From Escherichia phage ph0011: 64,000 bases of DNA. Location of the stretch: the sequence record OP557969.1, one strand, 5' to 3'. Of the stretch, positions 30,403 to 63,897 are shown piece by piece. The position numbers and the translations under genes were made by a program. The first letter of the stretch is position 1, and every line of letters begins with the position of its first letter. The notes beneath the pieces are model-generated. The model saw only the letters and a list, made by a program, of their open reading frames with translations. It had not been told where the DNA came from and made no database searches.

Positions 30403-30927
30403 ATGTCGAAGAAGGATACTTCGAAGAAAAAGCAATCAGTACATTTCAGTACTGGAAAAGATAACTGGACAACTCCAAAGGATTTCTTTGAAGAGTTGGA
30501 TGAGTTATGGGGATTCACACTTGATGCTGCTTGTGTTGATGAGACGGCATTATGTGAAAATTATTTTACACCAAATGACGATTCTCTATCACAGGATTGG
30601 GGAAAGAATATAGTTTGGTTAAACCCGCCATATAGTGATTTGAAAACATGGTTATCTAAAGCAGTAGATGCGTATAATAAAGGAGCAACAGTCGTAATTC
30701 TAGTTCCATCACGAACTGATACAATAGCCTTCCATGAATATGCTGCAAAAGTTTGTGATTGTATTTGTTTCATTAAAGGAAGATTACGATTTGGTATCCC
30801 AGAAGAACCAGAGAAGAAGACAGATTCAGCACCATTTCCTTCATGTCTTATAGTTCTTGATAATTACTTAACTACTGCTAAAATAAATTATCTTAAATCT
30901 ATTGGGTTGGTAATGAAGAAACTATGA
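30403..30927 (+). CDS. DNA N6-adenine methyltransferase (phage Dam-family type)
   Basis: 174 aa; DWGKNIVWLNPPYS catalytic (D/N)PPY motif; FTLDAAC upstream. Confidence 0.75.
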   Translation: MSKKDTSKKKQSVHFSTGKDNWTTPKDFFEELDELWGFTLDAACVDETALCENYFTPNDDSLSQDWGKNIVWLNPPYSDLKTWLSKAVDAYNKGATVVILVPSRTDTIAFHEYAAKVCDCICFIKGRLRFGIPEEPEKKTDSAPFPSCLIVLDNYLTTAKINYLKSIGLVMKKL

Positions 30928-31457
30928 AAGAAACATGTATTTTATCATTTATGAGATGTAACCCTGTACATAATGGACATGGTTTAGTTTTTGAAAAGGC
31001 CAAAACATTACAAGAACAGTACAATGCTGATTTGAAAATATATCTAAGTACCAGTACTGACAATATAAAAAACCAACTCCCACCTGAACTAAAAATGTAT
31101 TATACAGAGGGATTTTATCCTTCAGTACAAGAGAACATCTACACCGAAGACAATCTATTTGATATAATGAGAGAACTGGATGGAAAATACTTAGATGTAT
31201 TTTTCATATGTGGTTCAGACCGTATTGAATCTTTTCAGAAAACTCTTGACAGTTACAATGGGAAATTATATAATTTTTGTAATATAAAAGCAATTCAAGC
31301 AGGTATTGATCGCCAATCAAGTCAATATAGTTCAACACAAATGCGTAACTTCGCAAAAAATGAAGATTTTGATAATTTTCGAGAATTTTTACCAGGTAAT
31401 GATGAGGACTTAAAAATTCAATTATTTGAAGATGTTATCAAATACATGAGGAAATAA
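30924..31457 (+). CDS. HxGH nucleotidyltransferase (NMN adenylyltransferase-like)
   Basis: ATGA overlap; RCNPVHNGH and YSSTQMRN (ISSTxxR-like) motifs. Confidence 0.55.
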   Translation: MKETCILSFMRCNPVHNGHGLVFEKAKTLQEQYNADLKIYLSTSTDNIKNQLPPELKMYYTEGFYPSVQENIYTEDNLFDIMRELDGKYLDVFFICGSDRIESFQKTLDSYNGKLYNFCNIKAIQAGIDRQSSQYSSTQMRNFAKNEDFDNFREFLPGNDEDLKIQLFEDVIKYMRK

Positions 31458-39531: not shown

Positions 39532-39795
39532 ATGAATATCCAAGATAGATTACAATTGTTGTGCACACTTGAACAAGCTGCTTATGAACTTGTTAATAAA
39601 ATCTCTGAAGAACTTCCCAAAGGAACTAGAGTTCGTGTTCGTGAAATGGATTATGTAACGGGTGAAATTGAAGAAAAAGTTTTAACAGTGGTTAAAGTAA
39701 CATACTATGAGTCAGAGCTATCAATTCAATGTAAGTCAGATAATGGTTACATTTCCTACTATGGCACTGATATAGAGATGGAGGTAATCAAATGA
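39532..39795 (+). CDS. small hypothetical protein, FamD
   Basis: ATG just after upstream stop (track 39487..); LEQAAYELVNKISEELPKGTRVRVREMD. Confidence 0.55.
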   Translation: MNIQDRLQLLCTLEQAAYELVNKISEELPKGTRVRVREMDYVTGEIEEKVLTVVKVTYYESELSIQCKSDNGYISYYGTDIEMEVIK

Positions 39796-40934
39796 CCCTT
39801 TTACAAATATATGAAGATTTGATGCACTTATGTAATACCCGTGAGGCTTTCTTTTATGTAGATCATAAAAGTCCTGCTGGTGGCACATATCGTGTATTCA
39901 GTTATCGACTAGCATCATATACTGATTTCATGCAACCGAATGCATTGGAAACCCGTGGTTCTATGTGGGAAATCGATGACGATGGCAACATGATACGTTG
40001 TGCATCACGTTGTATGAAAAAGTTCTTTAATGCTTACGAAAATCCTGCTACGATGTTCCCTGCTGATACCAAATGTGATGACATTGCAGTAGTGATGCCT
40101 AAGTTGGATGGTTCAATTATCAGTTCTTACCGTGATAATGATGGTATTATTCGTTGTAAATCACATACCTCATTGTATTCTGACCATGCAATTAACAGTA
40201 CTCGACTAATTAACGAGAACCAGAATTTGTATCAGTACATTGATGAAGCTGAACGTTTGGGTTACACGGTTAACATGGAGTACACAAGCCCAGAGTACCG
40301 AATCGTATTGCCATATCAGGTAGAACAACTATTTGTTCTAAACGTCCGTCATCGTGTAAGTGGTGAATTGTTGTGTGGTAAAGCATTACGCGAAAAGTTT
40401 CCTTGTCTTTCACAGTACAGCACCAATATGACAGGTAAAGATATTCATCACACGTTTCCGGTAAGAAATACATTTCGTGAAAGTGTTGAAGAAGTTCATA
40501 AAATGCTTGATATTGAGGGTTTTGTTTGTATTCTAAAAGATGGGACAATGTGTAAAATAAAGACGGATTGGTATAGTTCATTACATCTAACAAAAGACAG
40601 TATCATTATTGATTCACATTTGTTCGAAGCTGTGTTAAATGGTTCAAGTGACGACTTGAAACAATTATTCAGTACTGACGAATATGCTATGCAAAAGATA
40701 TTGAGAATGGAACAATTGGTATTTTCGTGCTATAATTCATTACAAGATGAGGTAGAAAACTTCGTCAATACACACAAGCACTTGGGACGAAAGGAATTCG
40801 CAATGAAGGTTCAGGAGTGTTTGACTAATGAACTAAATCGTCAGGGCTTGGCCTTTGCAATGTATAACAATAAGTATGTTGATTATAAAGAAACTCTTAT
40901 CAAATACATGAAAGTAGTACTAAAGGACTTTTAG
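39792..40934 (+). CDS. rnlA: RNA ligase 1 (T4 gp63/RnlA-like)
   Basis: 380 aa; N-term ..FFYVDHKSPAGGTYRVFSYRLASYTDF..ALETRG and KLDGS adenylation lysine collinear with T4 Rnl1 as I recall it. Confidence 0.85.
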   Translation: MTLLQIYEDLMHLCNTREAFFYVDHKSPAGGTYRVFSYRLASYTDFMQPNALETRGSMWEIDDDGNMIRCASRCMKKFFNAYENPATMFPADTKCDDIAVVMPKLDGSIISSYRDNDGIIRCKSHTSLYSDHAINSTRLINENQNLYQYIDEAERLGYTVNMEYTSPEYRIVLPYQVEQLFVLNVRHRVSGELLCGKALREKFPCLSQYSTNMTGKDIHHTFPVRNTFRESVEEVHKMLDIEGFVCILKDGTMCKIKTDWYSSLHLTKDSIIIDSHLFEAVLNGSSDDLKQLFSTDEYAMQKILRMEQLVFSCYNSLQDEVENFVNTHKHLGRKEFAMKVQECLTNELNRQGLAFAMYNNKYVDYKETLIKYMKVVLKDF

Positions 40935-42032: not shown

Positions 42033-42965
42033 ATGCCGACTATCACACTAACAGTTGGTTTACCTGGATGTGGTAAAACAACATGGGCAGTACAAGAGAT
42101 TAAAAAAGCCAAATCCAAGACTATCAATATCAACCGTGATGATATTCGTGAATCGATGGCTGGGTCACATGATGCTTACAAATTCAATGATGCTAATGAG
42201 AAGTACGTAACTAATTTACAGTTCAGTGCAGCAAAATTAGCAGCAGAGAATGGTTGGAATATTATTGTATCCGACACAAACCTTAAACCACATTTCCGTG
42301 AACAATGGAAAATGTGGGCTAAAGATAATGGTTATGATTATAAAGAAAAGAACTTCTATGATGATTTTGTACCAAAGGAAGACCGTGGTGCAGATGTTCA
42401 TGAATTCTTTAAGATTAAAGAGTTTGTAAAACTTTGTAAGAAATATAACCTCCAGCGTGAGCGTTCAGTACAAGATAATATCATTGACACAATGGCAGAT
42501 ACGTACTATTATAGTAAGGCATTGCATATTGGTTACTATGGTAATTCTCGTGAAGAAGCGATTATCGTTGATATCGATGGAACTCTTGCTCATAAATGGA
42601 ACCGCAATCCATTTGATGAAAGTACAGTTCTCCAAGATACACCAGACGAAGAAGTTATTTTGTCTGTTATCGCCGAAGCAGTTTTTCATAAACGCAAGAT
42701 TATTGTCATGAGTGGTCGTACTGAAGGGTGTCGTGCTGACACAGAACAGTGGTTGAAGAATTGGGGTGTTCCCTACGATGCATTGTTTATGCGAGGCATT
42801 GATGATAAACGTCCCGATGATGTTGTTAAATTCGACCTGTACATGAAAAATGTGGTTGATCATTACGATGTTAAAAAAGTATATGATGACAGAGCACAAG
42901 TCGTATTCATGTGGCGTAAACTACTTGGATTGAAAGTGATGCAAGTTGCGGAAGGAAATTTTTAG
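42033..42965 (+). CDS. pseT: polynucleotide 5'-kinase / 3'-phosphatase (T4 PseT-like)
   Basis: GLPGCGKTT P-loop; DIDGTLA HAD motif; C-terminal ..MWRKLLGLKVMQVAEGNF like the T4 Pnkp end. Confidence 0.85.
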   Translation: MPTITLTVGLPGCGKTTWAVQEIKKAKSKTININRDDIRESMAGSHDAYKFNDANEKYVTNLQFSAAKLAAENGWNIIVSDTNLKPHFREQWKMWAKDNGYDYKEKNFYDDFVPKEDRGADVHEFFKIKEFVKLCKKYNLQRERSVQDNIIDTMADTYYYSKALHIGYYGNSREEAIIVDIDGTLAHKWNRNPFDESTVLQDTPDEEVILSVIAEAVFHKRKIIVMSGRTEGCRADTEQWLKNWGVPYDALFMRGIDDKRPDDVVKFDLYMKNVVDHYDVKKVYDDRAQVVFMWRKLLGLKVMQVAEGNF

Positions 42966-47376: not shown

Positions 47377-47604
47377 ATGAAAGTAATTCAAGTTATGGTA
47401 GAAAAATACCAAACTGAAGATGGTCGCATTTTTGATTCAGCAAAACAAGCTGAACATCATGAACGTATTATTTCTGGTACACGTAAAGTGTGTCCTACAT
47501 GTAATGGAACACAACAAGTACCGTCAGAGGATTACCGCAGCTTTTATGCTTGTCCACAGTGTGACGGTAAAGGTTACGTAGAAAAACAAGAGGTATGGAA
47601 ATGA
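47377..47604 (+). CDS. DnaJ-type zinc-finger small protein
   Basis: TAAGGAAA RBS; CPTCNGTQ ... CPQCDGKG (CxxCxGxG x2). Confidence 0.6.
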   Translation: MKVIQVMVEKYQTEDGRIFDSAKQAEHHERIISGTRKVCPTCNGTQQVPSEDYRSFYACPQCDGKGYVEKQEVWK

Positions 47605-48014
47605 AATTATATTGCTTAACTAATATGTATTGTCAAGGTGTCCAAGCTGGTATTCAAGCATTTCATGCTGGAGTTAAACTAATCAAAGAATATGAAGGTT
47701 CTTCGTTCAGTACTATGATTGATGAATGGTACAATGAGCATGAAACTATTGTAGTACTAAATGCGGGTGGACATGATAAATTAAATTCTTATTATAAAGA
47801 CCTTAACAAACAGGGAACAGTTCCGTTTGCCAAATTCAATGAAGCTGGATTGAATGATGCTATTACATGTATAGCAGTACTGTGTACATCTGAAATGGTT
47901 GAAGATATGTCTATTATGCGTATGAATCTTCCTGCTGGTGATCAGTTAATGCAGGTGAAATATGGATCATTATTTGACACATTAAAAGCAATTAGTACTA
48001 TGAGGACTATTTGA
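47601..48014 (+). CDS. hypothetical protein (weak PTH2/DUF2000-like pattern)
   Basis: ATGA overlap (track 47595..); ..GVQAGIQAFHAGV..W..ETIVVLNAG..; pattern-level impression only. Confidence 0.3.
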   Translation: MKLYCLTNMYCQGVQAGIQAFHAGVKLIKEYEGSSFSTMIDEWYNEHETIVVLNAGGHDKLNSYYKDLNKQGTVPFAKFNEAGLNDAITCIAVLCTSEMVEDMSIMRMNLPAGDQLMQVKYGSLFDTLKAISTMRTI

Positions 48015-52301: not shown

Positions 52302-52997
52302 ATGGTTGAACAATTCAATTTTGGTGGTTATGCTAATGGTGAAGTAAGTAACATTTCTATTCCATATGTAGTTGAGAAAGTTAATGGTTCAGAACGTACA
52401 TATGATCTAGCATCTCGTATGATGCAAGACCGTATCATTTTCCTTGATACTGACTTCAATGACCAAATGGCACATATCATCAAACAACAATTGGTGTGGT
52501 TAGACTCACAAGGTGATTCCCCTATTACATTCTATATTAGCTCACCGGGCGGTTCAGTACACGCAGGATTGGGTATTGCAGATGTTGCCAAGTCTTGTGT
52601 TTCACCAATTCGTACTGTAGTAATGGGTTATGCAGCTTCAATGGGGTGTTATACTCAATCGGTAATTGGTACTAAAGGTTTTCGTTTAGGTGGTAAGCGT
52701 TCTTACTTTATGTGTCATCAAGTAAGTTCTGGCACACAAGGTTTAATTACCGACCAGAAGATTTCACTTAAACATTCTGATGAATTGAATACACTATTGA
52801 CCAAAGAAATCGCAGAAGCAGTAGGTGTTTCTCATGAACAACTACTGAAAGATGCAGACCGTGATTTGTGGTTGAATGCTGAAGAAGCACTCGAATATGG
52901 TGAAAAAGGATTTATCGATGGTATTATCCTTGGACCACGCAACGAGAAAGGTCAATACCTAGTCAAGCGTCGTGGTGGTGTTGAAGAGTGGGTGTAA
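52302..52997 (+). CDS. ClpP-family (S14) serine protease
   Basis: ISSPGGSV, catalytic-type GYAASMG and FMCHQ; 231 aa. Confidence 0.8.
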   Translation: MVEQFNFGGYANGEVSNISIPYVVEKVNGSERTYDLASRMMQDRIIFLDTDFNDQMAHIIKQQLVWLDSQGDSPITFYISSPGGSVHAGLGIADVAKSCVSPIRTVVMGYAASMGCYTQSVIGTKGFRLGGKRSYFMCHQVSSGTQGLITDQKISLKHSDELNTLLTKEIAEAVGVSHEQLLKDADRDLWLNAEEALEYGEKGFIDGIILGPRNEKGQYLVKRRGGVEEWV

Positions 52998-55356: not shown

Positions 55357-58029
55357 TTAAGCACTGATTGTTACAGTTGCAGTATCTTTTTTATTACCAT
55401 CCACTGTAGTCACTGTAATGATTACAGAACCTTCTTCTAGAGCAGTTACTAATCCATCATCACTAATAGATACTTTAGTAGGTTTATCTGCACTATAAGT
55501 TACTGATTTGTTAGTTGCTTTAGCTGGTAGAACTTCTGGAACTAGTTGAACTGTTTTAGTTCCTGATAGTGAAAGTTCAGTAGTTTTAGGTGTTAAACTA
55601 ACACTGGATACTGGAACTGGAATATTAACGATTACTGATGTTTGACCAGTAACATCACTACCATCAGCGGCAGTAGCGATAATATTTGCAGTACCATTAG
55701 TTAGTGCAGTTACGATACCAGTATTAGCATCTACTTTAGCAATTTCTGGAGCACTGGATGACCAAATTACATTTTTATTGGTTGCATCACTTGGGGTAAT
55801 TGCAGCAGCCATTTGTTTAGTTGCATTCAATGTAGTCAAAGTTTGATCTTTAGGAGTTACATCAATTGCAGTTACTGGCACTGGAATATTAACAGTAATA
55901 ACACCTTGACCTGTTTTACCACTTCCATCAGCAGCAGTTGCGATAATGTTTGCAGAACCGTTAGTTAACGCAGTTACAACACCAGTACTAGCATCTACTT
56001 TCGCTACAGCAGGTTTACTGGAAGACCATGTTACAGATTTATTTGTTGCGTTAGTTGGAAGAACTTCAGCAGCCATTGCTTGAGTTGCGTTAACAGCAGT
56101 CAATGTTTTAGTTGCTGGAGTAACATTAATAGATGCGACTGGAACTGGAATTGCTACAGTTACCGCACATTTTGCAGTTTTTGCTCCATCAGCAGTTGTT
56201 ACTGTGATATCAGCAGTGCCATTTGCTACAGCAGTGATTAAACCAGTTGGACTAACAGTTGCCACTCCATCAGCAGAAGTACTATAAGTTACTGCTTTGT
56301 TGGTAGCATTAGGTGGTAGTACAGTTGGTGTTAGTTGTTGAGTATCACCGACTGAAGTTAATTTAGCACTTGTTGGAGATACTGATACACTTGCAACAGG
56401 AACTGGAATGTTAACAGTTACCACGCAAACTTTAGAAAATCCACCATCAGATGTGGTTGCTGTAATATTTGCAGTACCGTTTGCAACAGCAGTGATTAAA
56501 CCAGTTGGACTTACCGTTGCGACACCCTCAGCAGAAGTAGTGTATGAAATATCTTTACGACGAGCGTTATCTGGAATAACAGATGCAGTTAGTTGTTGAG
56601 TAGCACCTACAGAAGTTAGGGTTGCTGTCAACGGAGTCATATTAATTCCAGTTACTGGGATCGTTACATCAATCACTGATTCAGCAGTTTTAGCACCATC
56701 ATCAGTGGTAACAGTAATAGTTGTAGTACCGTTATCAACCGAAGTTACTAGACCAGTATTACTAACTTTTGCTACGTCTGGATATGAAGAAACATATGAA
56801 ACTGCTTTATTGGATGCAGTTGCAGGAGCAACGGTTGTTTCTAATTGTTTAGTATCACCTAATGTTGAGAATGTATAAGTACTAGGAGTCATTGTGACAC
56901 CAGATACTGGTGTTTTCACTGTGATTGTAGTAGTGTCCGTTTTAGCACCATCTTCGGTTGTAGCTGTAATCACCACTGTGCCGTTAGCCACACCAGTTAC
57001 TAGACCAGAAGTAGGGTTAACAGTTGCTATATCAGGTGTTGCTGAAGACCACGTGACGTTTTTATTAGTTGCATCATCAGGAGATATTGTAGCAGTTAAT
57101 TGTTGAGTACTGCCAACGTTAATTGATGCAGTTTTAGGAGAAACAACAACACCACTAACTGGAGTTGTTACAGTAACAGTACATTTTGAAACAAATGAAC
57201 CATCAACTGTAGTTGCAATTACATCAGTACTGCCATCTGCAATACCAGTTACCATACCAGTTGGACTTACAGTTGCGAAGCGTGGTATACTGGATGACCA
57301 AATAACACTTTTATCACTTGCATCATCGGGTGATACGGTAGCTGTTAGTTGATGAGTTTTACCAACACCAAGAGATAGAGTTGAAGGAGAAACAACAACA
57401 CCACTAACTGGAGTTGTTACAGTAAATGCACAAACATCGGTGAAACCACCATCATGAGTAGTAACTGTTACATTTGCATTACCATTAGCACGGGCAATTG
57501 CTAAACCAGTTTGAGCATCAACTTCAACTATTGTTGGAGCAGAGGAACTATAACTTACTGTTGGATCATTTGCATAATCTGGATTAATTGTAGCTGATAG
57601 TTGTTGTGTGCTACCAACTTTAAGTGCTACTACTTTGGGTGAAATAATAACACCATTAACTGGTGTAGTATAATCACGTTTAACCACACGACCATTGTTC
57701 AATTTAATAATACGACCCATATAAAGAGTAGCATATCCCTTACTAATCCCATCATCTACATAAATCATAAATGAATTGTCTTGAACCATATTAATTGCGT
57801 CTACTGGCTTAACAGTATTTGGAATGTCGATACCACGGGTATCATACCAACACATGGAAACTTTGTAATATATATCACCATTATCATTGATGAGATCATA
57901 CACGTTACTGGAACGTTGACGGTTAATATATAAAGTTTCGGTTAATACCTTACCATCGATTTTAGCGACAGAAACTTTAATACCACCAATACCAAATGGC
58001 AATTTACCTTCACTAGATATTGCTTTCAT
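55357..58029 (-). CDS. Ig-like (Big_2) repeat virion-surface/adhesin-type protein
   Basis: 890 aa; ~121-aa N-domain then 9 repeats starting (T/I)PV..V..P....L..G.TQQL..; AAAGGAAAG RBS; only minus-strand gene. Confidence 0.8.
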   Translation of the reverse strand: MKAISSEGKLPFGIGGIKVSVAKIDGKVLTETLYINRQRSSNVYDLINDNGDIYYKVSMCWYDTRGIDIPNTVKPVDAINMVQDNSFMIYVDDGISKGYATLYMGRIIKLNNGRVVKRDYTTPVNGVIISPKVVALKVGSTQQLSATINPDYANDPTVSYSSSAPTIVEVDAQTGLAIARANGNANVTVTTHDGGFTDVCAFTVTTPVSGVVVSPSTLSLGVGKTHQLTATVSPDDASDKSVIWSSSIPRFATVSPTGMVTGIADGSTDVIATTVDGSFVSKCTVTVTTPVSGVVVSPKTASINVGSTQQLTATISPDDATNKNVTWSSATPDIATVNPTSGLVTGVANGTVVITATTEDGAKTDTTTITVKTPVSGVTMTPSTYTFSTLGDTKQLETTVAPATASNKAVSYVSSYPDVAKVSNTGLVTSVDNGTTTITVTTDDGAKTAESVIDVTIPVTGINMTPLTATLTSVGATQQLTASVIPDNARRKDISYTTSAEGVATVSPTGLITAVANGTANITATTSDGGFSKVCVVTVNIPVPVASVSVSPTSAKLTSVGDTQQLTPTVLPPNATNKAVTYSTSADGVATVSPTGLITAVANGTADITVTTADGAKTAKCAVTVAIPVPVASINVTPATKTLTAVNATQAMAAEVLPTNATNKSVTWSSSKPAVAKVDASTGVVTALTNGSANIIATAADGSGKTGQGVITVNIPVPVTAIDVTPKDQTLTTLNATKQMAAAITPSDATNKNVIWSSSAPEIAKVDANTGIVTALTNGTANIIATAADGSDVTGQTSVIVNIPVPVSSVSLTPKTTELSLSGTKTVQLVPEVLPAKATNKSVTYSADKPTKVSISDDGLVTALEEGSVIITVTTVDGNKKDTATVTISA
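55360..57666 (-). repeat. 9 tandem ~255-270-bp coding repeats (Big_2 domains)
   Basis: Adjacent units near-identical at DNA level, e.g. 56210-56280 vs 56470-56540 (..cagcagtgattaaaccagttggac..). Confidence 0.75.
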
Positions 58030-58074: not shown

Positions 58075-58265
58075 TTATAACAAAATTATTTTAGTATTAA
58101 AAAGGTGTTCGAATGCTTCTTGAAATCTGGCTTGGACAGGTCAATCTTTGCTTTTAAAATGGAATTGTAAACTGCCTCCTGATATGATATCATAGTTTAA
58201 ATGGTAAATCAATAAACTTAACAAAAAAAACTTGCTACTACAGTCATAATTGTTCAATTTTGTAC

Positions 58266-58294
58266 TTGACATAATTAATCAATTATTGTACTAT
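58266..58294 (+). promoter_or_regulatory. sigma70-type promoter
   Basis: TTGACA - 17 nt - TACTAT upstream of 58330. Confidence 0.55.
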
Positions 58295-58329: not shown

Positions 58330-58935
58330 ATGAAACTATTCTTGAAAGAGATTGTACAAACCGTTGTTTTAATCGCTGCATTAAATTTTCCAGCAGCGGC
58401 AGAAGTTTCAAAAAAAGCATCTGTTCTTCTATTAAATGAACAGGTTGTATCAATGGATGGTGAACTAAATGATAATACGGTACAAGAAGTAGAGCAGTTG
58501 TGGAAAGAAAAAAGATTTAAAATTTTAACAATTACATCACCTGGGGGTGATTTTGATGCTGGTATTAAAATGGCAAATTTTGTTAGAGACAATGGTATAA
58601 ATTTAATTGTTTCTAAATATTGCAATTCGGCATGTACTGTGGTATTCTTTAGTGTATCCCCAGAAAAGCGATATATGACAAATCAATCAGTACTGGGATT
58701 GCATAATATTTCAATCAAAAGTAACGTTAAAGATATGGATCATACTTTCGTATCTGTTAGACAACTATCATCATTTACTGAAGAAATGGCAACAAAAGTA
58801 GGATTTTTATTTACACTATATTCAGCTAATGGTATTCCACCTAGCATTCTATATAAAGTTAGTCGTTCACGTGGTGAAGATGTTGTTATCTTAACAAAAA
58901 CAGACCTAATAAATTACGGTTCAGTCAATCCATGA
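58330..58935 (+). CDS. secreted ClpP/NfeD-fold serine-protease-like protein
   Basis: Signal peptide ..VVLIAALNFPAAAE; ITSPGGDFDAG, CNSACTV, GLHNIS resemble the ClpP-class layout. Confidence 0.55.
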   Translation: MKLFLKEIVQTVVLIAALNFPAAAEVSKKASVLLLNEQVVSMDGELNDNTVQEVEQLWKEKRFKILTITSPGGDFDAGIKMANFVRDNGINLIVSKYCNSACTVVFFSVSPEKRYMTNQSVLGLHNISIKSNVKDMDHTFVSVRQLSSFTEEMATKVGFLFTLYSANGIPPSILYKVSRSRGEDVVILTKTDLINYGSVNP

Positions 58936-59003
58936 AAATAATTATAATAACAGGATGATTATGTTGTTCTTCCTTTGTTATTAACTATATCGGAAATATA
59001 ACC

Positions 59004-59264
59004 ATGACAAACATCCAGAATTTGACATCTATTATTTTTTATGCTACAGTGGTGATATATGCTATTGTACTTATTTTAACAGTTTTTATATACAAAGATT
59101 ACAAAAAAGGCTTTATTAATAGCACAACAATCAAGTTCAATTCTAAATTTAAAGAAATTATATTTTATGTTTTGACAACATCATATTTGTTGTGTATATT
59201 GTTACTAGGGCCATTGATTTATATTTTATATACAACATTATTTGCAATTGGAGCTATTTTATGA
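59004..59264 (+). CDS. small membrane protein
   Basis: 86 aa, 2-3 hydrophobic segments. Confidence 0.55.
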   Translation: MTNIQNLTSIIFYATVVIYAIVLILTVFIYKDYKKGFINSTTIKFNSKFKEIIFYVLTTSYLLCILLLGPLIYILYTTLFAIGAIL

Positions 59265-59857
59265 CATGTATTATTGCACACACTAACGGTGTAACTTCAT
59301 TTATTGCAGGGGACAAGATGGGGAGTGATGGTTTTACGAAATCAATCCAAACAGAGCCGAAAGTGTTTGAGAAAGAATTCGTAAAGATTAGTGGTGATGA
59401 CGGCTTGACTCGTACAAAAGATGTTATGACTTTTGGATTCACTACATCATTTCGTATGGGGCAACTGCTAACTTACAATTTAAATTTACCAGACCAAAAT
59501 TCAAATGAGACGTTTCTACAGTACTTAGTACTGAAAGTTATTCCTATTATTCGCCAAATGTTTAAAGACGAATGGGGTGCACGTGATACATCACAAGATG
59601 TTGGTGGTGGTCAATTTATTATTTTACACAATCATAAGATTTATGAAATTCAGGAAGATTTTTCAGTTCTCCAGTCAAAATCAAGTATTGCATCAGTTGG
59701 TAGTGGTACATATCATGCAATTGCAGCGATGCAAGCATACATTGAACTCGAAAAAGAAACTAACGTACAACTTCATGAACGTATCAAATCTATTTTCAAA
59801 ATTGTCAGTGATAATGTGTCGAGTGTAAGTGAAGAGTTTGATGTATTAAAATATTAA
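59261..59857 (+). CDS. HslV/proteasome-beta-like Ntn hydrolase
   Basis: ATGA overlap (track 59192..); Met-Thr start (MTCIIAHT..), ..GDKMGSDG.., ..SVGSGTYHAIAAMQAY like the HslV GSG..A motif. Confidence 0.55.
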   Translation: MTCIIAHTNGVTSFIAGDKMGSDGFTKSIQTEPKVFEKEFVKISGDDGLTRTKDVMTFGFTTSFRMGQLLTYNLNLPDQNSNETFLQYLVLKVIPIIRQMFKDEWGARDTSQDVGGGQFIILHNHKIYEIQEDFSVLQSKSSIASVGSGTYHAIAAMQAYIELEKETNVQLHERIKSIFKIVSDNVSSVSEEFDVLKY

Positions 59858-59872
59858 AATTATAAGAGAGAA

Positions 59873-60067
59873 ATGATGGCATACACAATTTATGAATGGA
59901 TTTTGAGTTTTATTATAGTATTTTTTATGGTTGTAATTTACAATAATGCTAAATGCTTATATAGAGATTTAAAATCCAATGGTTATCATGCAAACAATAA
60001 TTTAATGTATGCCTATCATATTGGAATCATTCTATTATTATCAATATATTTAATTGGCTTTATATAA
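59873..60067 (+). CDS. small membrane protein (2 TM)
   Basis: 64 aa; WILSFIIVFFMVVIY / IGIILLLSIYLIGFI. Confidence 0.55.
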   Translation: MMAYTIYEWILSFIIVFFMVVIYNNAKCLYRDLKSNGYHANNNLMYAYHIGIILLLSIYLIGFI

Positions 60068-60076
60068 GGATTACGT

Positions 60077-60829
60077 ATGATATCAGAAAAATTCATAAGT
60101 AATGAGGGAAACAAGAGATTACTTATCATCTCAGGAGCAGGTCTTTCCGTTGAAAGTGGTATGGACCCATTTCGTTTCGATGATGGCCTATGGGATACAT
60201 TTAAAATTAATGATGTATGTAATATTGCAAATTTAGATACAAAATATCATATTGTTCATTCGTTTTATAACACGCTGCGTGTTAAACTGGGTCAATGTGA
60301 ACCAAATGCAATGCATTATTTTATAAAATCATTAGAGGAACAATATGGTGATTGTTTCCTTCATATGACTTCAAATATGGATGATCTTTACACCCGTATT
60401 GGCGGTAAAGAACTTAAACTTCATGGTAATTTATGTGAAGTGATAGAAAATTATAGTATTAATGGTGATGATTACAACATTGTTAACTGTGGTTATGAGC
60501 CATATATCCCAAAACATGATATTTTTGCTAAACCAAATGTAGTGATGATTGGTGAGTATCATCGTTATGTAGATGGTGTACGCCTACCAATATATGAAGA
60601 ACGAAATAATGTCTTGAAATCCCTTGATGAAAATGATACAGTTATTGTTATTGGTAGCAGCGATACTGTTCTTGTATGGTCCCGATTGGTAGCATCATTG
60701 CCATGTTATAGTGTCAATGTTAATATTAGAAAGAATGATAATGATTTTTTGTTTAATGAAAAAATTATCAAGCCAGCAACCAAAGCAATACCACAACTAG
60801 AGACTATAATTAAGGAACGTATGAAATGA
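60077..60829 (+). CDS. Sir2-family NAD-dependent deacylase/ADP-ribosyltransferase
   Basis: ISGAGLSVESGMDPFR, LHGNL, KPNVVMIGE, VIGSSDTV motifs; no 4-Cys zinc module seen. Confidence 0.8.
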   Translation: MISEKFISNEGNKRLLIISGAGLSVESGMDPFRFDDGLWDTFKINDVCNIANLDTKYHIVHSFYNTLRVKLGQCEPNAMHYFIKSLEEQYGDCFLHMTSNMDDLYTRIGGKELKLHGNLCEVIENYSINGDDYNIVNCGYEPYIPKHDIFAKPNVVMIGEYHRYVDGVRLPIYEERNNVLKSLDENDTVIVIGSSDTVLVWSRLVASLPCYSVNVNIRKNDNDFLFNEKIIKPATKAIPQLETIIKERMK

Positions 60830-61377
60830 GTGTTAAAGAAGTTCCCTTTGGTGAATATGGTTCACGTGCAAATTTTGTATTCTGCTATTTCTTTGCAAGA
60901 GGATGTAATCCCTACGAAAACTATGAGTTGAATGATATACCAGAAGTAAATTTAGTATTACTTCAACTACGATGGGATGGCCTTCTGGGTGGATGTGGTG
61001 GTACAGTTGAAAGTACTGATATCTCATTAGAAGATGCGTTGCGTCGTGAAATACAAGAAGAAATGAACTACTATATTTTTGTTTCTCACCTAAAACCACT
61101 TAAAACGTTTGAAATTTACCCAGGTGCAAACAGTCATAGTTTCAGTTATGAAGTAACATATGATGAGTTAAAATACATTCGTGATGGGTATACAACTGCC
61201 AAACATGCAAGTGCCGAAGTTGCTGGTGTAAATTTATGTCACATTTCTCGTTATTCTAAGGGACAAAATCGAGAAGCGGGATATAATAATCTTATGACAC
61301 AGAACTTCATCGGTACAGCAAAACACGAATTAGCGTATCTGGTACAAAAAGAGAACTTACTAATTAGCTATCTATAG
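60826..61377 (+). CDS. Nudix hydrolase
   Basis: ATGA overlap with Sir2; GGTVESTDISLEDALRREIQEEMN (REUxEE signature, non-canonical spacing). Confidence 0.6.
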   Translation: MSVKEVPFGEYGSRANFVFCYFFARGCNPYENYELNDIPEVNLVLLQLRWDGLLGGCGGTVESTDISLEDALRREIQEEMNYYIFVSHLKPLKTFEIYPGANSHSFSYEVTYDELKYIRDGYTTAKHASAEVAGVNLCHISRYSKGQNREAGYNNLMTQNFIGTAKHELAYLVQKENLLISYL

Positions 61378-61387
61378 GAGTTTAAAA

Positions 61388-61708
61388 ATGTCTTACTCTA
61401 TGTTTTTGGATGACATTCGTGATGCAAAACAATATTACCCTAATCAAGATATGGTAGTATGTCGTGATTTTAACAGTGCGTGTGAATATGTTGTTAAAAA
61501 TGGAATTCCAGCATTTGTATCATTTGACCATGACTTGGGTGATATGAGTGGAGACGAAAAAACTGGATATTCTTTTGCTAAATTTCTTATTGATTATATG
61601 TTTGATAATAATATTAAAGAACCGTTTGAGTACTTTGTGCACAGTAGTAACCCAGTTGGTAAAGTTAACATTGAAACATACTTAAACAATGGATTTAATG
61701 CATTATGA
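61388..61708 (+). CDS. receiver-like (cyclic-phosphate-processing REC-like) domain protein
   Basis: MFLDDIRD ... VSFDHDLGD ... EKTGYSFAKFLIDY; matches my memory of that phage domain, unverified. Confidence 0.45.
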   Translation: MSYSMFLDDIRDAKQYYPNQDMVVCRDFNSACEYVVKNGIPAFVSFDHDLGDMSGDEKTGYSFAKFLIDYMFDNNIKEPFEYFVHSSNPVGKVNIETYLNNGFNAL

Positions 61709-62007
61709 TTCAAACACATATTAAAAGTATCATTTGCACTATACTACTAGGTGTAGGAGTTCTATGGTTCAGTAATTATCACGAGAACACTAAGCGTACA
61801 AATATTCACTATAATACCGCAGAAGTTGTAAGTTTAGGACAATGTAGTGAGTACAAATGTTCGTTTATGTACAAAACCAGTAATGGTGAAGTACGTAATG
61901 GACTATCTAGTGAACCAGTTTCGATTGGTCAAATTGTTTACCAGGAGTGCTGGGAAGAAAAGGTTCGAGGTTCACGATGTTATGTTGAATACGAACCAAA
62001 AATGTAA
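61705..62007 (+). CDS. small membrane-anchored protein (1 TM)
   Basis: ATGA overlap; IICTILLGVGVLWF. Confidence 0.55.
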   Translation: MIQTHIKSIICTILLGVGVLWFSNYHENTKRTNIHYNTAEVVSLGQCSEYKCSFMYKTSNGEVRNGLSSEPVSIGQIVYQECWEEKVRGSRCYVEYEPKM

Positions 62008-62034
62008 TAATAACATGAGTCAATAATAATAGCC

Positions 62035-62052
62035 GAGTACAAGGATGTACTC
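62035..62052 (+). promoter_or_regulatory. hairpin in the phoH leader
   Basis: GAGTACA-agga-TGTACTC perfect 7-bp stem, no U-tract; 19 nt before the ATG. Confidence 0.3.
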
Positions 62053-62070
62053 ACAATTCAAGGATGTTTT

Positions 62071-63510
62071 ATGAAAAAATATACAATTGACACAAACGTA
62101 CTACTATCTGATCCAAATGCATCTGTTGCTTTTGATGGTGCTGCAATCATTCTACCATTTACAGTACTGGAAGAATTGGATTCGATTAAGAGTCGCAATG
62201 TTGATGTTTCACGTGATGCTCGTGTTGCGATTCGTAACATTGAAGCAATTATTGCAGAGGCATCACATAATGAGATTAGTTGTACTGGTGTTAATATTGC
62301 TGATGTTCATACCAATATGAGTCCTGAAAGCAAATTGTTTGTTATTACAAACGAAGAAGCTGAAGCACTAATTCGTACTAAGGCAATTGAAGATAAAGTT
62401 CAAACACTTCTCAAAAGTTCTGTACCAGATGATAAAATTATCTTAGTCGCTTTAGCAACTGATTCAGTACTGGTTACCCGTGATATCAATATGCGTATCA
62501 AGGCTCTTAGTTATGGAGTTGAAGTACAGGATTATCGTCATGATGTGGTTATCGGTGATAGCGATCTAATGCACGTAGGTCAACATCATCTCGATATCGA
62601 TTTCTGGGCAGAATTCAGTGGGATTGAAAATGCTGAAATTAAATCTGAAAAAACAGGTCGCCGCCTGTATCATTATATCCCAACACATCTAATCAAAGAT
62701 CTTCTTCCACAAAATCTTTGTATTGGTGACTATCTATATGATAATGCTGATGTGCTCTTTGTTTACGAAGGTCAGTCTGCAATCGAAGAAGATGATGGTA
62801 GTCTAACACCAGAAGATATTTTGGTCTTCCAAGATATTGGTCAATCTGTTGCATTACGTGCTAATGTATGGGATATTAAAGCTAAGAATGTCAAACAAGC
62901 ACTAGCTATTAATAGTATTCTCGATCCCGATGTACATCTAACAGTTCTACTAGGTTCTGCTGGGACAGGAAAAACACTAATTACGATTGCTACTGCACTA
63001 GAGTTAGTTCTGGAAAAACGTAAATACGACCGTATTATCTTCTCTAAAACACAAGATTCACAGTTTGAAGATATCGGATTCTTGCCTGGTTCAGAGGCCG
63101 AGAAAGTGATTCCATTTTGTGGTCCAGCGATTGACGCACTAGAGTACCTACATAAAGATGATGCAAATCCACAAGGTAGCATTGAGGAAATCATGAAACG
63201 TAATGTTATCCAGTTCAAAGCATTGAACTTTATTCGTGGTCGTTCTTTTGCCAATACAATTCTAATTGTGGATGAAGCACAGAACTTAACACCAGCCCAG
63301 CTAAAAACTGTCTTGACAAGAGCCGGAGAAAACTGTAAAGTAATCATACTTGGTAACCTAGCACAGATCGATAACAAGTTTATCAGTCCAGTAAACAGCG
63401 GTCTAACTTATGTAACTGAGAAATTTAAAAATTGGTCTGGTTGTCGTATCATTGAATTGGAAGGTGTTGTTCGTTCACCACTTGCTGAATTTGCTGAAGA
63501 AAATATGTAA
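62071..63510 (+). CDS. phoH: PIN-domain PhoH-like ATPase
   Basis: N-term PIN-like (YTIDTNVLL..), Walker A GSAGTGKT, Walker B IVDEAQN; 479 aa. Confidence 0.85.
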   Translation: MKKYTIDTNVLLSDPNASVAFDGAAIILPFTVLEELDSIKSRNVDVSRDARVAIRNIEAIIAEASHNEISCTGVNIADVHTNMSPESKLFVITNEEAEALIRTKAIEDKVQTLLKSSVPDDKIILVALATDSVLVTRDINMRIKALSYGVEVQDYRHDVVIGDSDLMHVGQHHLDIDFWAEFSGIENAEIKSEKTGRRLYHYIPTHLIKDLLPQNLCIGDYLYDNADVLFVYEGQSAIEEDDGSLTPEDILVFQDIGQSVALRANVWDIKAKNVKQALAINSILDPDVHLTVLLGSAGTGKTLITIATALELVLEKRKYDRIIFSKTQDSQFEDIGFLPGSEAEKVIPFCGPAIDALEYLHKDDANPQGSIEEIMKRNVIQFKALNFIRGRSFANTILIVDEAQNLTPAQLKTVLTRAGENCKVIILGNLAQIDNKFISPVNSGLTYVTEKFKNWSGCRIIELEGVVRSPLAEFAEENM

Positions 63511-63514
63511 TATT

Positions 63515-63547
63515 GTATGGGACAATATGTCCCATACATGATATAAT
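63515..63547 (+). promoter_or_regulatory. early-type promoter whose -35 lies inside a 9-bp hairpin
   Basis: GTATGGGAC-aatat-GTCCCATAC (63515-63537); TGGGAC - 18 nt - TATAAT (63542-63547). Confidence 0.55.
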
Positions 63548-63579
63548 GCTGTTATCATAATACAGAAGGAGATAGTAAA

Positions 63580-63768
63580 ATGGCTAAACAACCTAAGAAA
63601 AAAGAACCAGTAGCTAAAGTTAAAAAAGCAAAAGTTATTACATCCACAGAACAACGTATGTACGAACAACGTAAGAGTGAAACACTTTCTGGTCTACAAG
63701 CTCTTCGCAAACAAGGAGTCCTAACTCGTGCACAATATCGTAAGTTGGTAACACAAAAAGGTTATTGA
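63580..63768 (+). CDS. small basic hypothetical protein
   Basis: GAAGGAG RBS; MAKQPKKKEPVAKVKKAK..; 62 aa. Confidence 0.6.
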   Translation: MAKQPKKKEPVAKVKKAKVITSTEQRMYEQRKSETLSGLQALRKQGVLTRAQYRKLVTQKGY

Positions 63769-63870: not shown

Positions 63871-63897
63871 ATCCCTGTCGGTTGGCAGGGATTTTTT
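63871..63897 (+). terminator. Rho-independent terminator
   Basis: atccctg-tcggttgg-cagggat then tttttt. Confidence 0.75.

Follow-up and report, generated by a model that had tools for sequence, protein, structure and literature searches.

We describe a string of five genes in Escherichia phage ph0011, a Rak2-like jumbo phage; the genes may form one translationally coupled module of Rak2-like phages, spending NAD+ to process damaged RNA ends. The string occupies positions 60077-63510 of the 64,000-nucleotide stretch analysed here (record OP557969.1; hereafter the window) and encodes, in this order, a Sir2-family sirtuin, a Nudix protein, a standalone cREC domain, a small membrane-anchored protein and a PIN-PhoH protein. 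We put the probability of this reading at roughly 0.4, and we infer every substrate and every reaction in the scheme that goes with it. A neighbourhood of this kind was recognised in Serratia phage BF by Iyer, Burroughs, Anantharaman & Aravind (Viruses 2022; PMC9503650, section 3.7.3), who predicted NAD+-dependent RNA repair. In their proposal the sirtuin removes 2'-phosphates from RNA as KptA does, its partners being responsible for the opening of cyclic phosphates or the breakdown of ADPr>P; rV5-type and T5-type variants of the sirtuin neighbourhood were described as well (PMC9503650). The locus reported here is a further member of this already described, purely predicted system, with the NAD-salvage and 2H neighbours stripped in this lineage; its gene content does not go beyond that of phage 121Q, and the concept itself has been published before. 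Were the prediction to hold, phages would have an NAD+-fuelled form of RNA healing that parallels eukaryotic tRNA-splicing chemistry, two well-studied folds, the sirtuin and the receiver, would gain new activities, and phage-host conflict over NAD+ would have another reason. Homologues of the sirtuin occur in phage groups used in therapy work (T5-like, rV5-like and Rak2-like).

All five genes (Table 1) were found where an initial annotation, made from the sequence alone, had placed them, all on the + strand, and their family matches were confirmed, the protein then called REC-like proving to be a cREC domain (PF20274), an identity missed at first reading. Translational coupling can be read directly from the sequence: the Sir2 and Nudix genes, and likewise the cREC and membrane-protein genes, join through ATGA stop-start overlaps, both of which that annotation had pointed out. 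A gap of 10 nt that includes GGAG separates the Nudix gene from the cREC gene, and 63 nt lie between the membrane-protein gene and PIN-PhoH. A scan for hairpins with T-runs detected no + strand terminator-like site between 57800 and 63871, and so none within 60077-63510, in agreement with the earlier reading; the first such site 3' of the string is the hairpin at 63871-63892, which is probably the 3' end of the transcription unit. Upstream of Sir2 the genes are co-directional back to 58330, and the block 58330-63768 starts at a divergent intergenic gap. Two sigma-70-like sites make up a candidate promoter region, but a promoter scan gave no more such sites than expected from shuffled sequence, hence promoter candidates are weak. 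The string resembles one transcription unit, and co-transcription of its five genes is plausible on this layout.

Table 1. Coordinates of the gene string and of associated features in the window
Feature	Position	Strand	Evidence
Sir2-family sirtuin, 250 aa	60077-60829	+	PF02146 E=1.1e-19; phrog_2162 E=2e-77
Nudix, 183 aa	60826-61377	+	PF22327 Nudt16-like E=2e-18; PF00293 E=1.9e-6
cREC, 106 aa, standalone	61388-61708	+	PF20274 cREC_REC E=1.5e-22
Membrane-anchored protein, 100 aa	61705-62007	+	phrog_14661
PIN-PhoH (PhoH2-type), 479 aa	62071-63510	+	PIN_4 E=2.9e-20; PhoH E=2.8e-47
Intrinsic-terminator-like hairpin	63871-63892	+	9-bp stem, 5 GC pairs, then TTTTTT
Candidate promoter region	58133-58294	+	sigma-70-like sites 58133-58160 and 58266-58294, 10/12 matches each
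T4-type RNA ligase 1 (Rnl1)	39792-40934	+	PF09511 E=2.2e-15; PF20819 E=4.9e-17
Pnkp, polynucleotide kinase/3'-phosphatase	42033-42965	+	HAD_PNKP E=6.9e-43; P-loop kinase AAA_33 E=4.7e-14
Pth2-like peptidyl-tRNA hydrolase	47595-48014	+	PF01981 E=2.5e-6

In nucleotide sequence the string shares 87% identity with genes 476-480 of Escherichia phage 121Q and with other Asteriusvirus jumbo phages, and the window is collinear with 121Q across most of its length; the best protein identities, 96% for the sirtuin and 96% for the Nudix, are both to phage UE-S1. Gene order is kept in phages BF, CBB and RaK2, at identities to the window proteins of 42-63% for the sirtuin, 46-53% for the Nudix, 60-62% for cREC, 39-46% for the membrane protein and 66-79% for PIN-PhoH. 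A scan of IMG/VR seeded with a four-sequence cREC alignment yielded 80 loci, 14 of them Rak2-like and 66 non-Rak2. The complete string is present in 14 of the 14 Rak2-like loci, and in nine of these the Nudix and cREC domains are fused as one gene, a fusion seen by Pfam on BF gp113. Immediately upstream, 13 of the 14 carry an NMNAT-Nudix gene together with NAMPT and 12 carry a small 2H protein, the exception being 121Q, which like the window has ClpP-like and HslV-like genes at that site. Configuration 1 of Iyer et al., that of phage BF, has the same order of distinct-clade sirtuin, Nudix, cREC and PIN endoRNase-PhoH (gp112-115, 44-67% identical to the window proteins), but the window differs from it in encoding Nudix and cREC as separate genes and in having the ClpP-like and HslV-like genes in place of the 2H (Acb1-like), NAMPT and NMNAT-Nudix genes. 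Neither the conserved membrane protein nor the NUDT16 affiliation of the Nudix, described below, is mentioned in PMC9503650.

Conservation of this sort could also arise with no single function behind it, if the string were a syntenic run of independent auxiliary genes held in place by the collinearity of Rak2-like phages and by compact packing. All 14 full strings do belong to one phage group, PhoH, Sir2 and cREC each occur singly in many further phages, one of the intervening genes encodes a possibly exported membrane protein, and lineages have exchanged the genes that precede Sir2 at one site. A chance assemblage would, however, sit poorly with the fusion of Nudix to cREC, with stop-start overlaps joining the genes, with a NUDT16-like Nudix that among the matches listed is found only in Rak2-like phages and adjoins Sir2 where annotated, and with the recurrence of Sir2-cREC adjacency in unrelated rV5-like phages; we regard this explanation as quite improbable.

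Outside the Rak2-like group, the same protein families keep company with RNA-repair genes. In an rV5-like phage an RNA ligase-cREC-Sir2 operon faces a kinase-only PNK and a metallophosphoesterase; in a T5-like phage Sir2 precedes a HAD_SAK_2 RNA-repair phosphatase (E=4e-20), and PhoH lies at a distance of 3 kb; and in Aeromonas phage 65 a CCA-adding enzyme and an HD protein precede cREC. An Rnl1-type ligase or PNK lies within 8 kb of cREC in 25 of the 66 non-Rak2 loci, or in 38 of the 66 if kinase and metallophosphoesterase genes are also counted, figures that are indicative only, many of these loci being related or truncated; a detectable Sir2 is present in none of the 66. The rV5-like gene annotated as '3'-phosphatase, 5'-polynucleotide kinase' (locus L006, 3196-3606, - strand) encodes 136 aa with the kinase domain only, so that in this phage either the adjacent metallophosphoesterase or cREC must supply 3'-end healing.

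The window itself encodes Rnl1, 94% identical to the product of 121Q gene 438, and Pnkp, both outside the string and 17-20 kb upstream of it; they are probable partners of the string. T4 Pnkp-Rnl1 tRNA repair would, on the RNA-end reading, serve the same biological purpose, but it differs from the string in being ATP-dependent and having no need of NAD+, as well as in the distance between the genes. No further NAD or RNA enzyme emerged when ten large unannotated open reading frames (ORFs) of the window were scanned against Pfam.

The protein on which an NAD+-spending function would depend is the sirtuin, which scores 71.5 bits against a PF02146 cut-off of 24 and has homologues in 974 of 50,697 phage records, T5-like, rV5-like and Rak2-like phages among them. 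No other NAD+ consumer can be recognised in the window, since the DNA ligase encoded there is ATP-dependent. The sirtuin's nearest solved relatives are CobB deacylases (6rxj, E=4e-22; 1s5p, E=1e-21), and we aligned it with CobB and with the sirtuins of RaK2, BF, CBB and rV5-like, T5-like and KVP40-like phages. The signature motifs noticed in the initial annotation are borne out by the alignment to CobB (GAGLSVESG..FR, SNMDD and LHG), with which (PDB 1S5P) the protein shares GAGxSxxSG..FR, the Asn, the Asp and the catalytic His. G20, G22, S27, G28, N100, H116, E160, G193 and N216 are invariant across phage sirtuins and CobB, and Asp102 is conserved; N100, D102 and H116 align to the catalytic Asn, Asp and His of CobB, so that neither the Asn nor the His has been lost. 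Judged from these residues, the NAD+ pocket and catalytic core are intact.

The substrate-binding small domain, by the same alignment, is remodelled. The C...CxCC zinc ligands of CobB have no Cys at the corresponding positions in any of the seven aligned phage sirtuins, which extends to every homologue compared the suspicion that the window protein lacks the usual four-Cys module. CobB QNID reads SNMD in the window, its Gln being Ser, Ala or Thr across phage sirtuins; FGE has become IGE and VYP has become VLV; and the window protein contains an 8-residue insertion relative to CobB. The residues affected include CobB F190, replaced by Ile, and P221, replaced by Val, both belonging to the acetyl-lysine tunnel and termed strictly conserved (PMC5107563); replacement of the zinc ligands had already been noted in Vibrio phage sirtuins (PMC5107563). 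In the RaK2 Sir2 (locus L004, 3707-4444) GAG is aligned with GNG and the FR of the NAD-binding loop is lacking, and its NAD+ binding may on that account be impaired or altered; GAG and the Arg are retained in all the other aligned phage sirtuins, and FR in most.

With such relatives, the sirtuin could simply be a CobB-like lysine deacylase that reprogrammes host or phage proteins, for instance by activating acetyl-CoA synthetase, while the Nudix clears O-acyl-ADP-ribose or ADP-ribose and cREC, the membrane protein and PIN-PhoH are mere neighbours. Its closest solved and curated relatives are indeed CobB/Sirt5-class deacylases, it retains the full catalytic set, and the nicotinamide set free could be recycled by NAMPT, whose gene is just upstream of the string in 13 of 14 relatives. 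Deacylation has also been proposed for Vibrio phage sirtuins, whose transcripts rise late, after those of NAMPT/NMNAT (PMC5107563). Yet NCBIfam CobB-type models match the window protein at 85-93 bits against cut-offs of 243-320, far short of the equivalog thresholds (92.6 versus 318 bits; 84.9 versus 320 bits), and the zinc module that shapes the peptide cleft is without any Cys in all aligned phage members. The replacement of F190, P221 and the QNID Gln points the same way, and a deacylase would account neither for the fusion of Nudix to cREC nor for the links of Sir2 with cREC and RNA ligase, and of Sir2 with HAD_SAK, that recur in unrelated phages. We hold this explanation to be doubtful.

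The Nudix scores 67.3 bits against a PF22327 cut-off of 27 and aligns to human NUDT16 (5wji, E=2.9e-12, residues 38-179). The extended NUDT16 box GGxV(E/D)..SLED..RExxEE is kept, with R74-E75-x-x-E78-E79 aligning to NUDT16, and by these features the phage protein is a genuine member of the NUDT16 family. It shares full-length homology and a C-terminal FIGxA motif with human NUDT16 and Xenopus X29 (decapping, IDP and ADP-ribose-conjugate pyrophosphatase), a likeness by sequence only; it differs from the human enzyme in being phage-borne, about 30% identical and, in relatives, fused to cREC. Homologues occur in 70 of 50,697 phage records; among the matches listed, all are from Rak2-like jumbo phages, and in every annotated record among these a Sir2 gene adjoins the Nudix match. 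The pairing of Sir2 with a Nudix of ADP-ribose relevance, suspected from the outset, thus stands, the ATGA-coupled Nudix belonging to what is, to our knowledge, the one Nudix family known to cleave ADP-ribose conjugates. NUDT16 cuts the pyrophosphate of protein-attached ADP-ribose, and it strips the ADP-ribose that TRPT1, human Tpt1/KptA, places on RNA phosphate ends (PMC6582358).

The cREC domain, defined in 2021, is predicted to process cyclic phosphates, and was first proposed to act on cADPR or cyclic nucleotides (PMC7824862). The window protein matches PF20274 at 80.5 bits against a cut-off of 27, and D8, D9, R11, F46-D47-H48-D49-L50, S86, N88 and G91 are invariant in an alignment of 72 sequences. 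Its AlphaFold model (pLDDT 96.7) has four beta-alpha units in a REC fold; the protein carries no output domain, no histidine-kinase partner is encoded among the neighbouring genes, and PDB sequences gave no match even at E<=10. By our inference, the DxD found where the phospho-acceptor lies resembles the nucleophile and the Asp+2 acid of HAD phosphatases.

The PIN-PhoH protein joins a PIN endoRNase domain at its N terminus to a PhoH P-loop ATPase/helicase domain, in which Walker A (GSAGTGKT) and Walker B (IVDEAQ) motifs are present. This is the two-domain architecture of mycobacterial PhoH2, but the match to the NCBIfam model 'RNA 5'-3' helicase PhoH2' (E=8.6e-49) reaches 167 bits and not the 680-bit equivalog cut-off. 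The membrane protein is confined to Rak2-like phages and has four invariant Cys; two homologues carry a lipobox-like LVSSC, and the model (pLDDT 81) combines an N-terminal transmembrane (TM) helix with a five-strand OB-like barrel whose fold matches are generic only. It is possibly exported.

A working scheme for the module would begin with host anticodon nucleases or toxin RNases leaving 2',3'-cyclic phosphates on the ends of RNA. cREC, as a phosphoesterase, would open a cyclic phosphate, either that of RNA>p, giving a 2'-phosphate, or that of the by-product ADP-ribose 1'',2''-cyclic phosphate. The sirtuin would then act as Tpt1/KptA does, in two chemical steps such as are found both in Tpt1/KptA and in sirtuin deacylation, a His-activated ribose hydroxyl expelling the RNA as 2'-OH. 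The NUDT16-like Nudix would split either the ADP-ribose product or ADP-ribose linked to RNA at its pyrophosphate, to give AMP; PIN-PhoH would unwind or trim the RNA; and Rnl1 and Pnkp would seal the RNA and heal its ends in the conventional way.

A 1''-O-linked ADP-ribose that is then attacked by the 2''-OH is an intermediate in the mechanisms of both sirtuins and Tpt1, which makes the scheme chemically natural. The working analogy with the Tpt1/KptA pathway extends to NAD+ donating ADP-ribose to a phosphate oxygen, to a cyclic-phosphate intermediate and to the clean-up of ADP-ribose; the window protein nevertheless has the sirtuin Rossmann fold, not the ART-like one, and is not a family member, so the resemblance is a functional analogy only. 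Processing of RNA ends would best explain the fusion of Nudix to cREC, the limitation of a NUDT16-type Nudix to Sir2-bearing phages, and the way in which Sir2, cREC or both turn up again, in unrelated phages, next to ligases, kinases and RNA-repair phosphatases. The unity of the module, the order conserved despite identities of 39-79%, the intact Sir2 residues and the changes at CobB F190/P221 lend it support. So do the NUDT16 homology of the Nudix, the REC fold of cREC with its invariant DD and DxD, the RNA helicase/RNase architecture of PIN-PhoH, and the Rnl1, Pnkp and Pth2-like genes elsewhere in the window. A bolder extension, which we consider somewhat doubtful, is that the zinc-less phage sirtuin would be the first nucleic-acid-acting sirtuin: in convergence with Tpt1/KptA it would be either an RNA 2'-phosphotransferase or an ADP-ribosyltransferase of RNA phosphate. 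Nudix and cREC would be its dedicated erasers or clean-up enzymes, and no receiver domain before cREC would have been shown to act as an enzyme by itself.

Several observations weigh against an RNA-repair function. The nearest relatives of the sirtuin are protein deacylases, and no sign of RNA binding is present in its sequence. Pnkp, understood to heal cyclic-phosphate ends without NAD+, is already encoded by the phage, which leaves the need for a second route unexplained. The part played by PIN-PhoH is vague, because cyclic phosphates are not produced by PIN domains, which depend on metal, and conserved gene order is weak evidence when taken alone, Rak2-like phages being broadly syntenic. 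The scheme has no role for the conserved, possibly exported membrane protein inside the string. The 2H gene, which is absent from the window, is of the Acb1 family in BF and encodes a virion protein in CBB, loosening one link to RNA repair, and the literature searched held neither biochemical nor genetic tests of phage sirtuins, of cREC or of this Nudix.

The genes upstream of the string bear on a further alternative. Between the gene for an immunoglobulin (Ig)-like protein and Sir2 (58330-60067) a module has been swapped: the window and 121Q have ClpP-like, TM, HslV-like and 64-aa TM ORFs, and BF, CBB and RaK2 (loci L003, L005 and L004, respectively) have NMNAT-Nudix and NAMPT, joined in BF and CBB by an Acb1-like 2H gene. 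With the BF, CBB and RaK2 proteins as queries, tblastn returned from the 64-kb window no homologue of NAMPT, NMNAT-Nudix or 2H (for BF gp110, the 2H protein, none at E<=1e-3), and gp110 has no counterpart beside the 121Q string either; the lineage of the window and 121Q appears to have kept the string and to have lost, or never had, these neighbours. The BF gene (L003, 2940-3386) matches the Pfam anti-CBASS family Acb1 (E=3.6e-15), and its CBB counterpart is CBB_118 (L005, 4273-4719). The CBB protein has been found in virions, with 60% coverage by mass spectrometry (PMC5259590), which suggests that the 2H protein of BF and CBB is a nuclease injected to act against signalling and not an enzyme that heals RNA ends. 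In composition the NAMPT/NMNAT pair matches NARP2, which has been demonstrated to counter NAD+-depleting defences.

The string might accordingly belong to an NAD-centred anti-defence island, destroying host immune signals or reversing host ADP-ribosylation of RNA, DNA or protein, with cREC opening cyclic phosphodiesters and the Nudix cleaving ADP-ribose conjugates or signals. Its position directly after a pair of NARP2 composition in 12-13 of 14 relatives would fit such a role, as would the Acb1-family protein that these relatives carry and CBB packages, the substrates first proposed for cREC (PMC7824862) and the removal of ADP-ribose from proteins and RNA ends by NUDT16 (PMC6582358). An NAD+-consuming sirtuin, however, has no obvious part in the degradation of signals, and in the window and 121Q lineage the string evidently functions without NAMPT, NMNAT and Acb1-like neighbours. 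The commonest neighbours of cREC elsewhere are RNA ligase and PNK, and none of the string proteins matches any defence or anti-defence model tested; counter-defence we judge unlikely, and less probable than protein deacylation.

The initial annotation also mentioned Sir2 effectors of NAD-depleting bacterial defences; that the sirtuin is a defence-type Sir2 was rejected: no family among the PADLOC defence-Sir2 models matched at E<=0.01, and the protein is CobB-like. No sensor domain (SLOG, HerA, Ago or similar) is fused or adjacent to it, its neighbours being Nudix, cREC and PIN-PhoH. Like the string, the defence sirtuins (ThsA, DSR1/2, SIR2-HerA and SIR2-APAZ) and NARP2 turn on NAD+, and a NARP2-type pair adjoins the string in relatives; the differences are the lack of a PADLOC match for the window Sir2 and the absence of NARP2 genes from the window.

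The ORF at 30924-31457 (+, 177 aa), which carries HxGH-like and SSTQMR motifs, had been put forward as an NMNAT-like enzyme that could regenerate NAD+. Its product reaches 19.7 bits against a cut-off of 112 for TIGR00482 and 20.4 against 150 for NF000840, falls below the cut-off of the cytidylyltransferase-like family PF01467 (E=0.011), and is not significantly similar to the NMNAT-Nudix gp106 of Serratia phage BF (BLASTP E=0.66). With no NadD, NadM or NadR threshold reached, no similarity to the BF NMNAT and no relative found in the PDB, the assignment was rejected as unsupported. The product looks, from its motifs, to be a HIGH-motif nucleotidyltransferase, and nothing ties it to the string. 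Its gene overlaps by ATGA that of a Dam-type N6-adenine methylase (PF05869, E=7e-33), the pair spanning 30403-31457 (+), and both are conserved in 121Q as genes 417 and 418, the counterpart of the 30924 gene being annotated there only as 'cytidyltransferase'. Local regeneration of NAD+ has a genetic basis in the relatives, where NAMPT and NMNAT-Nudix lie upstream of the string in 13 of 14 loci, and none in the window, which has no homologue of either. Overall, the NAD/ADP-ribose logic of the initial annotation holds, and its NMNAT and defence-Sir2 ideas do not.

A few other features of the window deserve mention. A hairpin (CGAGTACAAGGATGTACTCA) at 62034-62053 (+), ahead of the PhoH gene, repeats in its loop the AAGGATG of the PhoH ribosome-binding site, located 17 nt downstream; it is kept in 121Q only, and not in RaK2, BF or CBB, and could be a translational operator or a product of chance. 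Rfam detected no structured RNA in the whole window or in the 57.8-64 kb region, and no tRNA gene was found in the window. A 12-kb stretch holds the Pth2-like gene, Rnl1, Pnkp, two calcineurin-like phosphoesterases and an ATP-dependent DNA ligase, and may be a loose region of RNA and translation-rescue genes. Two ClpP-family genes are present on the + strand, a strong match at 52302-52997 (E=1.6e-41) and a divergent one at 58330-58935 (E=5.5e-5), the latter adjoined by the HslV-like peptidase gene at 59192-59857. The gene at 55357-58029 (-) encodes a Big_2 Ig-like protein of 890 aa with nine repeats (E=9e-136); its syntenic counterparts in 121Q and Serratia phage BF encode only 125 and 301 aa, respectively, and the window product is probably a greatly expanded Ig-repeat structural or decoration protein.

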